Shown one piece after another: positions 12,183-49,530 of a DNA stretch of 64,000 nt (its first letter is position 1; each line of letters starts with the position of its first letter). The notes beneath the pieces were generated by a model. That model searched no databases. It had not been told where the DNA came from and worked only from the letters and a program-made list of their open reading frames with translations. The position numbers and the translations under genes were made by a program. Origin of the DNA: Octopus sinensis. Lineage: Eukaryota. Where the stretch lies: positions 1,674,001 to 1,738,000 of the forward strand of contig NC_043023.1 of NCBI RefSeq assembly GCF_006345805.1, read 5' to 3'.

Positions 12183-12480
12183 TATGTAAAATGTATTTGT
12201 AAAATGTAGGGGATTACTCCAAAACATTTACCAGTTCGCTCTCAGTTAGGTATTCAAAATAGGTTATTCAATAGTTAATATATAAATCCAATAAAGTTCT
12301 AATAATATATGAATTTAGAGGTATACTCTGTTGGATAATTCTGAATATATTACCTTAACAATACAGGTTTTCTGGAGTATATAATATCAACAATAATAAT
12401 AATAATAAGGATTATTACGAATGTGGATAGGAATACCTTTAATTCTTTTAATTTATATATATATATACACAGTTACAGTA

Positions 12481-12860
12481 GGCGCAGGAGTGGCTGTGTG
12501 GTAAGTGGCTTGCTTATCAACCACATGGTTCCGGGTTCAGTCCCGCTGCGTGGCATCTTGGGCAGGTGTCTTCTGCTATAACCCCGAGCCAACCAATGCC
12601 TTGTGGGTGGGTTTGGTAGACGGAAGCTGAAGGAGGCCTGTCGTATATATGTATATATATATATGTGTGTGTGTATATGTTTGTGTGTCTGTGTTTGTCC
12701 CCCTAGCATTGCTTGACAACCGATGCTGGTGTGTTTACGTCCCCGTCACTTAGCGGTTCGGCAAAAGAGACCCGGGGTCGATTTGCTCGACTAAAGGTGG
12801 TGCTCCAGCATGGCCGCAGTCAAATGACTGAAACAAGTAAAAGAGTAAAGCGTAAAGAGT
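12481..12860 (+). mobile_element. tRNA-derived SINE family A with apparent TSD
   Basis: (TA)n-cacagttaca occurs on both flanks. Confidence 0.9.
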
Positions 12861-12967
12861 ATATATATATATATACACACACAGTTACAAGTACAGCGTG
12901 GAAGGTGTTTATAAGCCATTTAAAAACACACAAAAAGCGTTAGATTTACTTCAACATTTAAATTTTG

Positions 12968-13018
12968 TTTGTTAAAATATTTTCGGCGCTTTGAAACTGT
13001 GACCTGTTCACTGACAAA
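12968..13018 (-). ncRNA. Hammerhead-like motif with swapped G3-C8 core (GUGAACA)
   Basis: uuuguca GUGAACA ggucacaguuucaaagcgcc GAAA auau UU uaacaaa; palindromic helix III AAUAUU; helix II weak in this copy. Confidence 0.5.
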
Positions 13019-13515
13019 ATTCTGTGCTGCATGGAATTTTGCCAGTATGGCCACACCACAATTCAACAATTCAATGATTGGAACCAGTGAAAATATTAAA
13101 GAATGTCAATATATGCGTGTGTGGGCATGCATGTAGTCTGAGTGTGTAAGGGTGTGTGTGTGTGTATATATATATATGTTTGTTTATACATACATTTCCT
13201 GACATTAAACATACACACACACCCACACACACACACATATATATATATATATGTAATAGAAATATGTTACGAAAAGAAAATATAAAATACACGTGGAAAT
13301 GTAATGGTAAAATATGAAAAATCAACGAAAATGCATATTGCAAATAAAAAAAGGCTATTTATGACAGGTAGTGACAAATATATACATTTAGATTGACTGA
13401 GGTAGTAAAACAAGTCCTAAAAGTCATTATTATGAGATGATTATAAGATGATAATAAAGTAAGAGAACAAAACGAACCAATGGTTTATATATATATATAT
13501 ATATTCTTTTACTTG

Positions 13516-20623: not shown

Positions 20624-20723
20624 NNNNNNNNNNNNNNNNNNNNNNNNNNNNNNNNNNNNNNNNNNNNNNNNNNNNNNNNNNNNNNNNNNNNNNNNNNNNN
20701 NNNNNNNNNNNNNNNNNNNNNNN
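20624..20723. other. Assembly gap (100 N)
   Basis: Run of N. Confidence 1.
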
Positions 20724-26570: not shown

Positions 26571-28476
26571 CCCTTTCATTACTGTATTTATTTTGAGATG
26601 CTCTATATTTCTTTCAATTACTTTAAATATGACAAAGAATTTAGAAAAATAACTTAGTTATCATTCAGCTAGTGTTAGGAACATAAATTGTGACTAAGGT
26701 TTGGTGGGAGATTTTAATTCAGAACTTATGAAAACAGGACATTTGTACTACAGAGCCAGAGGTGGTTTCAGCCAGGTTGGTATCAAAAGGGTTAAATATA
26801 ATAAAGGATCTAGTAAAATAACTTAGTTATCATTAAGCTAGTGTTAGGAACATAAATTGTGACTAAGGTTTGGTGGAAGATTTTAATTCAGAACTTATGA
26901 AAACAGGACATTTGTACTACAGAGCCAGTTTCAGCCAGGTTGGTATCAAAAGGGTTAAATATAATAAAGGATTTAGTAAAATAACCTAGTTGTCATTCAG
27001 CTAGTATTAGGAACATAAATTGTGACTAAGGTTTGGTGGAAGATTTTAATTCAAAATTTATGAAAACAGGACATTTGTACTACAGACCAGGGGTGGTTTC
27101 AGCCGGGTTGGTAACAAAAGGGTTAAATATAATAAAGGATTTAGTAAAATAACCTAATTGTCATTCAGCTAGTATTAGGAACATAAATTGTGACTAAGGT
27201 TTGGTGGAAGATTTTAATTCAAAATTTATGAAAACAGGACATTTGTACTACAGAGCCAGGGGTGGTTTCAGCCGGGTTGGTAACAAAAGGGTTAAATATA
27301 ATAAAGGATTTAGTAAAATAACTTAGTTATCATTAAGCTAGTGTTAGGAACATAAATTGTGACTAAGGTTTGGTGGAAGATTTTAATTCAAAATTTATGA
27401 AAACAGGACATTTGTACTATAGAGCCAGGGGTGGTTTCAGCCGGGTTGGTAACAAAAGGGTTAAATATAATAAAGGATTTAGTAAAATAACTTAGTTATC
27501 ATTAAGCTAGTGTTAGGAACATAAATTGTGACTAAGGTTTGGTGGAAGATTTTAATTCAGAACTTATGAAAACGAAGACATTTGTACTACAGAGCCAGAG
27601 CCGGTTTCAGCCAGGTTGGTATCAAAAGGGTTAAATATAATAAAGGACTTAGTAAAATAACTTAGTTATCATTCAGCTAGTGTTAGGAACATAAATTGTG
27701 ACTAAGGTTTGGTGGAAGATTTTAATTCAGAACTTATGAAAACAGGACATTTGTACTACAGAGCCAGAGCCAGTTTCAGCCAGGTTGGTATCAAAAGGGT
27801 TAAATATAATAAAGAATTTAGTAAAATAACTTAGTTATCATTAAGCTAGTATTAGAAACATAAATTGTAACTAAGGTTTGGTGGAAGATTTTAATTCAGA
27901 ACTTATGAAAACGAAGACATTTGTACTACAGAGCCAGAGCCGGTTTCAGCCAGGTTGGTATCAAAAGGGTTAAATATAATAAAGAATTTAGTAAAATAAC
28001 TTAGTTATCATTAAGCTAGTGTTAGAAACATAAATTGTAACTAAGGTTTGGTGGAAGATTTTAATTCAAAACTTATGGAAACAAGACATTTGTATTACAG
28101 AGCCAGAGGCGGTTTCAGCTGGGTTGGTATCAAAAGGGTTAAATATAATAAAGGATTTAGTAAAATAACTTAGTTATCATTCAGCTAGTGTTAGGAACAT
28201 AAATTGTGACTTAGGTTTGGTGGAAGATTTTAATTCAAAACTTATGAAAACAGGACATTTGTACTACAGAGCCAGAGCTGGTTTCAGCCAGGTTGGTATC
28301 AAAAGGGTTAAATATAACAAAGAATTTAGTAAAATAACTTTGTTATCATTTAGCTAGTGTTAGGAACATAAATTGTGACTAAGGTTTGGTGGGAGATTTT
28401 AATTCAAAACTTATGAAAACAAGACATTTGTACTACAGAGCCAGAGCCAGTTTCAGCTGGGTTTGTATCAAAAGGG
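26571..28476. mobile_element. piggyBac-like MITE whose 3' ~169 bp is amplified to 11 tandem units, nested in a family-B SINE
   Basis: TTAA|CCCTTT left end; units end aaaaggg|ttaa (last one ttca) and restart at the internal ttaa of 26623; SINE sequence resumes after 28480. Confidence 0.85.
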
Positions 28477-28997
28477 TTCATCAATGTAAGAAGATAAATG
28501 ACAAAGTCGACCAGAGTTTGAGCTTAGAAATCTGAAGACAGATGGAATGCTGGTAAGCATTTTGTCCAGCGTGTCGGCAATTCTCCCAGCTCATTGCTAT
28601 AATAACAAATAACGATGATGATGATGATGATGCTGATAATAATAATAATAATGAAATTACCTACATTCTACAAGTGCAACAGATAATGGGAAGATTTACA
28701 AAAACACTGTATAATAAAAATAATAAATATTCCTAGTTATTCAGTGCATCTCTATGCAAGTTTGTGTATGTACATAAATCCATGTGTGTGTATGTGTGCA
28801 ATATATATATATATAGAGAGAGAGAGACGTGCAATATGTACATACATAATGGCAATAAGACAGATAGATAACTAGGTTTGAGTATGTATGTGAGTGTATG
28901 CATATAATTGCTTGTGTGTGTGTGTATACATATATATATGCTTAAATCTGCACATATACCCACTCACATATATTTATATAAACATACATACACATAC

Positions 28998-30538: not shown

Positions 30539-31010
30539 ATAGGCATATACATATATGTACACAAATATATACCATGATGGCTATGACAATTCACTACTTC
30601 AATAATTTGTTTGTGTATATGTGTATATATATGTTTGTGTGTGTGTATGTGTGTGTTTTCGCAGGAGAGTGGAGAAGATTGACACTGCTTGCACACTGGT
30701 GACATTCAAAACCGTCAAACAATGTCAAGATAATGAGTGGGAAATCCCTGAAGGAAGGTGCACAGTGGAATATTGCAGGTTGCACACGCAGCTGCACATA
30801 CTCTGTGTGGCAGAATCACATCATCATCATCACTGTCATCATCATTTGTCGCCATCTTCATTTAATGTCCATTTTCCATTCCGGTATGGGTTGGATGGTT
30901 TGGCCACAGCTGGTCAGGTCTGGGACCACACTAGGCTCCATTCTCTGTTCTGGCATGGGTTTCTATGGCTGGATGCCTTTTCCATTGAGTATACTGGGTG
31001 CTTGTAACAT

Positions 31011-32778
31011 GGCACCAGCACCAGTGCTTTTTATGTGGCACCAGCACAATTGCATTTTATGTGACACCAGCACAATTGCTTTTTATGTGGCACCAGCACA
31101 ATTGCATTTTATGTGACACCAGCACAATTGCATTTTATGTGACACCAGCACAATTGCTTCTTATGTGGCACCAGCACAATTGCATTTTATGTGACACCAG
31201 CACAATTGCTTCTTATGTGACACCAGCACAATTGCATTTTATGTGACACCAGCACAATTGCTTCTTATGTGACACCAGCACAATTGCTTTTTATGTGGCA
31301 CCAGCACAATTGCATTTTATGTGACACCAGCACAATTGCTTTTTATGTGGCACCAGCACAATTGCATTTTATGTGACACCAGCACAATTGCATTTTATGT
31401 GACACCAGCACAATTGCTTCTTATGTGGCACCAGCACAATTGCATTTTATGTGACACCAGCACAATTGCTTTTTATGTGGCACCAGCACAATTGCATTTT
31501 ATGTGACACCAGCACAATTGCTTCTTATGTGACACCAGCACAATTGCTTTTTATGTGGCACCAGCACAATTGCATTTTATGTGACACCAGCACAATTGCT
31601 TTTTATGTGGCACCAGCACAATTGCATTTTATGTGACACCAGCACAATTGCTTTTTATGTGGCACCAGCACAATTGCTTTTTATGTGGCACCAGCACAAT
31701 TGCATTTTATGTGACACCAGCACAATTGCTTTTTATGTGACACCAGCACCAGTGCTTTTTATGTGACACCAGCACAATTGCATTTTATGTGACACCAGCA
31801 CAATTGCTTTTTATGTGGCACCAGCACAATTGCATTTTATGTGACACCAGCACAATTGCTTATGTGACACCAGCACCAGTGCTTTTTATGTGACACCAGC
31901 ACAATTGCTTATGTGACACCAGCACCAGTGCTTTTTGTGACACCAGCACAATTGCTTATGTAACACCAGCACCAGTGCTTTTTGTGACACCAGCACAATT
32001 GCTTATGTGACACCAGCACCAGTGCTTTTTGTGACACCAGCACAATTGCTTATGTAACACCAGCACCAGTGCTTTTTGTGACACCAGCACAATTGCTTAT
32101 GTGACACCAGCACCAGTGCTTTTTGTGACACCAGCACAATTGCTTATGTAACACCAGCACCAGTGCTTTTTGTGACACCAGCACAATTGCTTATGTGACA
32201 CCAGCACCAGTGCTTTTTGTGACACCAGCACAATTGCTTATGTGACACCAGCACCAGTGCTTTTTGTGACACCAGCACAATTGCTTATGTGACACCAGCA
32301 CCAGTGCTTTTTGTGACACCAGCACAATGCTTATGTAACACCAGCACCAGTGCTTTTTGTGACACCAGCACAATTGCTTATGTGACACCAGCACCAGTGC
32401 TTTTTGTGACACCAGCACAATTGCTTATGTAACACCAGCACCAGTGCTTTTTGTGACACCAGCACAATTGCTTATGTGACACCAGCACCAGTGCTTTTTG
32501 TGACACCAGCACAATTGCTTATGTACACCAGCACCAGTGTTTTTGTGACACCAGCACAATTGCTTATGTGACACCAGCACCAGTGCTTTTTGTGACACCA
32601 GCACAATGCTTATGTGACACCAGCACCAGTGCTTTTTGTGACACCAGCACAATTGCTTATGTGACACCAGCACCAGTGCTTTTTGTGACACCAGCACAAT
32701 TGCTTATGTGACACCAGCACCAGTGCTTTTTGTGACACCAGCACAATTGCTTATGTGACACCAGCACCAGTGCATTTT
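31011..32778. repeat. Minisatellite: 26-bp units, then 47-bp (23+24) dimers, grown from a family C element
   Basis: tgtgacaccagcacaattgcatttta repeats; period switches near 31860; continuous with the family C copy at 30855-31030. Confidence 0.95.
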
Positions 32779-33162
32779 AAAGGGTATCAGTTGAGCAAAT
32801 CAACCCCAGGACCTATTCTTTGTAAGCCTAGTACTCATTCTATTGGTCCCTTTTGCTAAACTGCTAAGTTACAGGGACATAGACACATCAGCATCTGTCA
32901 TAAAGTGATGGCATAGAGAGGTGGGGTACAAACAAACACATATAAATACATACATATGTGTGTGTGTGTGTGTGTGTGTGTGTATGATTGGCTTCTTTCA
33001 GTTTCCGTCTACCAAATCCACTCACAAGGCTTTGGTCAGCCTGAGACTATAATAGAAGACACTTTCCCAAGGTGCCATGCAGTCGGATTGATCCTGGATC
33101 CGTGTGGCTGGGAAGCCAGCTTCTTACCACACAGCCATACCTGCACCTACATGTGTATATAT

Positions 33163-47801: not shown

Positions 47802-49530
47802 ATCATCATCATCATTGTTTAAAGTCTTTTTCCATGCTGGCATGGGTTGGATGGTTTGACAAGAATTGGCTAAGCAGAAGACAGCACTAGGCCTCAGTGT
47901 CTGTTTTGGCATGGGTTTTACTGCTGGGGGCCCTTCCTAACACCAACTGCCCTGTAGAGTGGACTGAGCACTTTATACATGACACGAGTACAGGCGAGGT
48001 CAGTTTTGGCATGGTTTTTATGGCTGGATACCCTTCCTAACACCAACTGCCCCGTGCGTAAGTGACTGAGTGCTTTTTACAACGTCACCAGTACAGGTGA
48101 GGTCCGTTTTGGCATGGTTTTTATGGCTGGATGCCCTTCTCACAACACCACCACTGCCCCGTAGAGTGGACTGAGTGCTTTTTACACGTCACCAGTACAG
48201 GTGAGGTCCGTTTTGGCATGGTTTTTATGGCTGGATGCCCTTCCGAACACCACTGCCCCGTAGAGTGGACTGAGTGCTTTTTACACGTCACCAGTACAGG
48301 TGAGTCCGTTTTGGCATGGTTTTTATGGCTGGATGCCCTTCCTAACACCAACTTGCCCCTAGTGGACTGAGTGCTTTTTACACGTCACCAGTACAGGTGA
48401 GGTCCGTTTTGGCATGGTTTTTATGGCTGATGCCCTTCCTAACACCAACTGCCCCGTAGAGTGGACTGAGTGCTTTTTACACGTCACCAGTACAGGCGAG
48501 GTCAGTTTTGGCATGGTTTTTATGGCTGGATGCCCTTCCTAACACCAACTGCCCTGTAGAGTGGACTGAGCACTTTATACATGACACGAGTACAGGCGAG
48601 GTCAGTTTTGGCATGGTTTTTATGGCTGGATACCCTTCCTAACACCAACTGCCCCGTAGAGTGGACTGAGTGCTTTTTACACGTCACCAGTACAGGTGAG
48701 GTCCGTTTTGGCATGGTTTTTATGGCTGGATGCCCTTCCTAACACCAACTGCCCCGTAGAGTGGACTGAGTGCTTTTTACACGTCACCAGTACAGGTGAG
48801 GTCCGTTTTGGCATGGTTTTTATGGCTGGATGCCCTTCCTAACACCAACTGCCCCGTAGAGTGGACTGAGTGCTTTTTACACGTCACCAGTACAGGTGAG
48901 GTCCGTTTTGGCATGGTTTTTATGGCTGGATGCCCTTCCTAACACCAACTGCCCCGTAGAGTGGACTGAGTGCTTTTTACACGTCACCAGTACAGGTGAG
49001 GTCCGTTTTGCATGGTTTTTTATGGCTGGATGCCCTTCCTAACACCAACTGCCCCGTAGAGTGGACTGAGTGCTTTTTACACGTCACCAGTACAGGTGAG
49101 GTCCGTTTTGGCATGGTTTTTATGGCTGGATGCCCTTCCTAACACCAACTGCCCTGTAGAGTGGACTGAGTGCTTTTTACACGTCACCAGTACAGGTGAG
49201 GTCCGTTTTGGCATGGTTTTTATGGCTGGATGCCCTTCCTAACACCAACTGCCCTGTAGAGTGGACTGAGTGCTTTTTACACGTCACCAGTACAGGTGAG
49301 GTCCGTTTTGGCATGGTTTTTATGGCTGGATGCCCTTCCTAACACCAACTGCCCTGTAGAGTGGACTGAGTGCTTTGTACATGTCACCAACACAGGTGAG
49401 GTCAGTTTTGGTATGGTTTTCACAGCTGGATGCCCTTCCAAATGCCAACCACTTTGCAGTGTGGACTGGATGCTATTTACGTGGCACCAGCACTGGCAGG
49501 GTCTCCAAGTAACTTACAAGACAAAGATCC
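47802..49530 (-). repeat. Family C element with a 90-bp internal segment amplified ~17 times
   Basis: Unit gttttggcatggtttttatggctggatgcccttcctaacaccaactgccccgtagagtggactgagtgctttttacacgtcaccagtacaggtgaggtcc. Confidence 0.95.

Follow-up and report, generated by a model that had tools for sequence, protein, structure and literature searches.

The question raised by this locus is whether a natural hammerhead ribozyme can carry the pair between its core positions 3 and 8 in flipped orientation, as G3-C8. The initial annotation of the window (the whole stretch of 64,000 nucleotides of Octopus sinensis DNA that was analysed) had described such a motif at 13018-12968 on the minus strand, with GUGAACA in the place of CUGANGA. 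Direct reading of that strand confirmed the description: behind a 7-nt arm of helix I come the core GUGAACA and the additional G, a weak helix II leads on to GAAA and AAUAUU, and U17 precedes the other arm of helix I. The finer details of the annotation also held, namely six of seven pairs in helix I, a palindromic helix III and a helix II weakened in this copy.

The window copy and its surroundings

The features identified at the locus are listed below.

13005-13011, minus strand: hammerhead core box 1, GUGAACA (G3 at 13011, C8 at 13006, A9 at 13005), from direct reading and the family consensus
13012-13018, minus strand: helix I 5' arm, pairing with 12968-12974 (6/7 pairs in this copy)
12985-13004, minus strand: additional G, unpaired (13004), followed by helix II and its loop, decayed in this copy
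13003-12999 and 12989-12985, minus strand: helix II arms, 3/5 pairs in this copy
12975-12984, minus strand: GAAA box (12984-12981), helix III palindrome AAUAUU (12981-12976) and U17 (12975), with numbering and layout after PMC4209133
12968-12974, minus strand: helix I 3' arm, read from the sequence, with one G-to-A change relative to the consensus
12887-13032, minus strand: 5'-truncated stub from the pseudo-LTR (3' end) of a Penelope-like element (PLE), with 87% identity across 147 nt to the terminus of long copy L107
13025-13046, plus strand: short stretch of the element's own 5' end in inverted orientation, matching that end in reverse at a head-to-head junction and forming a fold-back
12887-12919, minus strand: ATG and first codons (MAYKHLP...), the likely start of the element's ORF inside the pseudo-LTR, as judged from a similar peptide in relatives
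12860-12875, no strand: (TA)n tract at the insertion site, many 3' ends of the family adjoining (TA)n

The window copy is thus a decayed, 5'-truncated stub of a Penelope-type element with thousands of kin in the genome of Octopus sinensis, and it terminates at the shorter of the two 3' termini found for the family. The fold-back at 13010-13046, which the initial annotation had likened to an inverted pseudo-LTR junction, can be described more closely as an inverted 5' stub of the kind that PLE insertions typically show; the inverted arm itself spans 13025-13046. When the motif was folded together with the 30 nt upstream of it, a long hairpin was predicted that absorbs a helix I arm and G3, with pair probabilities of 0.0 for helix I. 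A cut site is predicted between 12975 and 12974. The window copy is mutated in both helices and is predicted to be inactive, its core predicted to be locked in the fold-back.

An abundant 400-bp repeat, which we take to be an octopus SINE, lies beside the stub (12451-12883) and recurs in at least a dozen other places in the window. The window also contains three tandem arrays of 1.6-1.9 kb (26623-28478, 30999-32779 and 47899-49496), the first with a period near 169 and the last with a period near 100, and an assembly gap of 100 Ns (20624-20723).

The family and its host element

A genome-wide search with a pattern that accepted any letter at positions 3, 7 and 8 gave 7,911 matches, with three for the reversed control pattern. 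The argument against chance rests more on this comparison than on resampling of the window, where a loosened descriptor, relaxed post hoc to suit the decayed copy, matched in 2 of 100 first-order Markov resamples (mean 0.02 per window). G3 together with C8 was found in 7,135 of the 7,911 matches and C3 together with G8 in three, which lie in family context at loci L258-L260. GUGAACA was present in 90 of the first 100 matches listed. A similarity search of the same genome returned 2,448 candidates; among the 40 that were scored, overlapping pairs with one member on each strand were common.

Copies were also sampled by an anchor, a word located approximately 65 nt downstream of the cut site, which gave 9,457 matches; the first 100 of these were used, and 72 were parsable under a parse that tolerated mismatches, the counts given here covering these 72 copies. 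G3 and A9 were present in all 72 and C8 in 68, so that G3-C8 was found in 68/72, while UGA was present in 67, GAAA in 62 and UU at positions 16.1 and 17 in 70. Helix I was complete (7/7 pairs) in 53 copies and helix II (5/5 pairs) in 52, and the inner four letters of the helix III sequence AAUAUU were intact in 67. Two subfamilies were distinguished by a loop II of 8 or 9 nt, with helix II and the core common to both, and the family motif possesses G10.1-C11.1 and an extra nucleotide following A9. The expectation of the initial annotation that GUGAACA and a paired helix II would prove to be the consensus is therefore borne out, as is its proposal that a flipped-core family is naturally present. 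The literal CUGANGA core is absent from the family consensus (GUGAACA), and the Watson-Crick 3-8 pair that characterizes the minimal PLE hammerhead is present in it.

Contigs of four sequencing runs under four organism labels, which are close kin sharing the family and not independent origins, showed no alternative letter at a frequency of at least 5% at positions 3 and 8. Four runs guessed to be RNA contain the family motif in contigs that carry no information on strand, ends or expression.

Rfam returned no gathering-level hit in five loci, a result that is uninformative since relatives with a canonical core (L243 and L246) were included among the five and likewise gave no hit; for the window itself, hammerhead families were absent among the 150 listed of 471 weak matches. 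For L193, an intact natural copy, the hammerhead layout was the minimum-energy predicted structure. In two-strand folding the predicted minimum was a different fold from the dimeric hammerhead, such programs not modelling the core.

Short copies of the family have two alternative 3' ends approximately 60 nt apart, many of them abutting (TA)n; an inverted 5' copy, which can be of any length, is often present as well. A first search for GIY-YIG proteins led to Neptune-type elements with a U3-A8 motif, which were rejected as the parent, and an upstream walk from long copies of the family reached a GIY-YIG-like frame, the parent ORF. Among 30 loci chosen by the endonuclease protein and not by the motif, with 1.5 kb downstream of the ORF inspected, the motif was found 0.8-1.4 kb behind the ORF in 24; of the 21 motifs parsed, 20 had G3-C8 and one G3-G8. 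The ORF of L193 (L193:3952-7077, minus strand) is a stop-free frame of 1,042 amino acids in whose translation a reverse transcriptase (RT) with DKSG and YVDD, a CX3CX2C linker and a GIY-YIG domain (VY...YIGETSR) can be read. Its position is 915 nt upstream of G3, with both on one strand, and motif and ORF likewise share a strand throughout L193-L198. No pseudo-LTR 3' end running into the ORF was seen among the copies inspected by eye. A peptide similar to the MAYKHLP... N terminus follows the hammerhead in the relatives L243 and L245.

Searches with Pfam, using pieces of the family ORF and the whole ORF, gave nothing over the cut-off, and the sister ORF (L181:1210-4341, plus strand) gave a weak match to RVT_1 (E 0.0022) under it. 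Database homologs of the RT-endonuclease proteins number 76 at E 1.5e-16 or lower, almost all of them without a name, and the weakest of these homologs carry PF00078 and PF26215. By eye, the stretch between RT motifs 3 and 4 is much longer than in the representatives of PMC8557442, and local identity between the family RT and the Neptune-type ORF of this genome is 24-29%. These proteins fit no clade representative in comparison by eye with supplementary alignments of PMC8557442 (Neptune, Nematis, Poseidon, Hydra and Naiad), the tree described below containing no reference members of these clades, and they may represent an unassigned PLE lineage.

Other elements were encountered in the same genome. 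Neptune-type elements (L038, L047, L051, L052 and L053) carry a U3-A8 hammerhead-like motif behind their ORF (e.g. L038:2355-2405, plus strand), another such motif with U3-A8 occurs in a separate repeat at L184 and L229, and a 662-amino acid frame resembling Hydra-clade PLEs by eye (L138:7297-9282, plus strand) lies beside a decayed copy of the family.

Relatives and the 3-8 pair

A sister family with 54% amino acid identity (loci L181-L191 and L201-L236) has a homologous motif 0.4-0.8 kb behind the ORF in most loci (e.g. L181:4864-4911, plus strand). Its core was C3-G8 in 39 of the 40 parsed motifs, with C at position 9 also in 39, and helices I and II of the two families differ by compensatory changes. 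A scan of metagenome contigs added 17 loci, 12 of them with no readable motif (many lacking the 3' flank) and five with one: L241 with U3-A8 and C9, and L243, L245 (U4G), L246 and L256 with C3-G8, the motifs of L245 and L256 having been located by eye.

Across the family and these relatives the 3-8 pair was Watson-Crick in seven of seven lineages, with three pair types, a result equalled by 1 of 42 permutations. Pairs were counted by a scripted structural parse because MAFFT alignments of the motif across lineages were out of register. In this parse pairing was present in 55 of the 56 helix and core cells, the mean in shuffles being 31, and none of 20,000 shuffles reached 55; these counts are partly circular, since the motifs were found by a pairing scan or by eye, and they treat seven lineages with a readable motif that are related to each other as if kinship could be ignored.

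In a quick tree of 36 rows, 21 of which have no motif label, the G3-C8 and C3-G8 octopus families join (SH-aLRT 96) among C3-G8 and U3-A8 relatives, and a protein named Octopus vulgaris nests inside the sister family. The family branch is long (0.31 changes per column). By parsimony on these sequences, G3-C8 is a derived state that arose once. A second core variant that recurs naturally in the clade appears to be A9C, as it is found in the sister family and L241; together with U4G in one copy, it suggests that the core is relaxed in this clade.

Possible cleavage and the alternatives to it

The genomic 5' ends of the 100 anchored copies, some of which are duplicates or two arms of one insertion, were compared with the position of the cut site. 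In 84 copies the sequence reaches G3 or continues past it, and in one, an ambiguous case, it begins at the cut site, which points to uncut RNA as the source of inserted copies. In 48 copies the 5' end falls 15-27 nt upstream of G3. Where copies start at AGAUGC without upstream template, an extra G is present in 19 of 28, at a place where the template has C or U (for example in L079, L283, L320 and L332, and at 13032-13034 of the window), suggesting a copied cap and a transcription start at this site, although some of the extra Gs may derive from the inverted arm. The same site also resembles a branch point and 3' splice site (CTAAC...CAG), making an intron a possible reading; a capped start fits better, since the letters upstream of the extra G vary between copies.

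In Anolis, cleavage by the hammerhead of the Poseidon element needs protein, uncut RNA is the insertion template, reverse transcription begins at two internal sites that define the tail, and hammerhead mutants left insertion in vitro unaffected (PMC11167929). The octopus observations agree with such a scheme. With this analogy, the 5'-end pattern and the copies of uncut RNA suggest a slow and conditional ribozyme near the 5' end of the pseudo-LTR transcript. Transcription would start approximately 22 nt upstream of G3, helices I and II would fold, and two RNAs would pair through the AAUAUU palindrome to make helix III. G3 and C8 would then form the tertiary pair by which the ribose of nucleotide 8 is positioned. 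A minority of the RNAs would be cut after U17, while the RT would copy uncut RNA from two internal start sites approximately 60 nt apart. This would leave, in (TA)n, thousands of short stubs whose 5' ends are inverted, the window copy being one of them.

At somewhat better than even confidence, we favour the view that the pseudo-LTR of this RT- and GIY-YIG-encoding PLE holds a minimal type I hammerhead with the 3-8 pair swapped from C-G to G-C, and that intact copies likely cut their own RNA slowly, as dimers or with the help of protein. What is observed here is the family consensus, the place of the motif behind the ORF and its covariation with relatives. That the motif is a true hammerhead descendant is very probable, and the best reading is that selection for the 3-8 pair has preserved it. 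Continued cutting by intact copies is somewhat more likely than not, and so a good deal less assured than the descent. The fullest form of this reading, a natural and catalytically active G3-C8 family fixed in a retroelement with more than 7,000 copies, in a clade that would use three of the four Watson-Crick pairs at 3-8 as well as A9C, stands for us at about an even chance.

The main competitor, less probable and still to be taken seriously, is a hammerhead-derived fold without a useful cutting rate that is kept as a structure for RNA folding or for binding of an element protein, the 3-8 pair serving the fold. The 5' ends show no cluster at the cut site, as this explanation would have it; similarly, RNA ends were absent at the site in Anolis, where insertion was independent of cleavage (PMC11167929). 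The canonical PLE hammerheads of that study likewise leave no footprint and yet cleave in vitro, which weakens the point. A wobble between G3 and U17 is predicted (probability 0.67 alone and 0.41 in context) and can be likened to the inhibitory C3-G17 trap of PMC3884650, counting against activity, as does A9C in the sister family and L241. Minimal hammerheads are moreover weak in vitro, with non-cleavage roles left open by PMC4209133. Against these points, the active conformation includes the 3-8 pair (PMC3884650), and U4, G5, A6, GAAA and U16.1 are all fixed in the family consensus.

Neutral decay, in which two independent transversions in a dead master hammerhead restored complementarity by luck before amplification, is improbable. 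Copy number is silent on this matter, since thousands of copies were amplified from few masters and so give no evidence of selection; only a single C-G to G-C event was observed, and the family branch is long. However, none of the seven lineages shows a single change, and L241, the other lineage to have changed, likewise has a Watson-Crick pair. Relative to the sister family, helices I and II have altered by compensation, and the core is constant where loop II varies. A double transversion in which a pair of the active fold is retained amounts to the classic rescue experiment performed in nature, and speaks for that fold having been selected. A chance likeness within a palindromic MITE-like DNA repeat is very improbable indeed. 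In its favour, many copies form almost perfect palindromes, a hammerhead hit is lacking in Rfam and the ORF has no Pfam family over the cut-off, but the arms are unequal and often single. A MITE identity was rejected since fixed terminal inverted repeats are absent, long copies continue upstream into the RT and GIY-YIG ORF, and homologous hammerheads with canonical cores are found at the same place in relatives.

Comparison with known hammerheads and elements

The reading of an active G3-C8 hammerhead touches on the question of whether PLE hammerheads need to cut at all, these being weak in vitro and dispensable for insertion in one reconstituted system (PMC11167929). If it is true, PLE hammerheads would be selected for their active conformation and motif searches would miss whole families, as descriptors fixed on C3-G8 or U3-A8 overlook abundant ones. 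The variant core of the family is new; the ribozyme class and the type of element that carries it were already known.

The element agrees with the endonuclease-containing (EN+) PLEs Neptune and Nematis (Craig 2021, PMC8557442) in its single ORF with an RT joined to a C-terminal GIY-YIG domain by a zinc-finger-like linker (CX2-5CxxC in those elements), its 5' truncation with inverted stubs, its tail at one end and its preference for (TA)n targets. The tail, at approximately 60 nt, is longer than the 30-40 bp described for EN+ PLEs in that source.

Minimal hammerheads in the pseudo-LTRs of metazoan PLEs have been described as having low activity and acting as dimers (Cervera and de la Pena 2014, PMC4209133), and the family shares with them the type I layout, an unpaired nucleotide between 9 and 10.1, G10.1-C11.1, a small palindromic helix III, the common occurrence of U17, the pseudo-LTR position and the thousands of single truncated copies. 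It differs in that the extra nucleotide is G where their consensus has H, and in its G3-C8 core, as only C3-G8 or U3-A8 is found among the representatives of Fig. S3 in PMC4209133. The descriptor given in Fig. S7 of that paper demands CUGANGA, so that the family is missed by such searches, as the initial annotation had anticipated.

Natural U3-A8 variants are known (Perreault 2011, PMC3088659), also from the Cercyon PLEs of Schistosoma (PMC4209133), and resemble the family in their covariation at 3-8 and in having been overlooked by CUGANGA descriptors. They differ from C3-G8 by two transitions that retain the pyrimidine-purine order, whereas G3-C8 requires two transversions that reverse it. 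In the literature searched as text, G3-C8 was found as an engineered construct and not as a natural core. The statement of the initial annotation that compensatory swaps at 3-8 restore activity was correct as to restoration, which is only partial: in the Anolis Poseidon hammerhead C3G or G8C singly eliminates cleavage, which returns in part in the double mutant (PMC11167929), with partial rescue by engineered C3G/G8C also given in the review PMC8495972. According to a data-not-shown remark in PMC3884650, G3-C8 works better with G17 than with C17. The engineered mutants therefore have the same flipped pair in laboratory constructs, whereas in the octopus family it has been fixed naturally, and amplified, together with U17.
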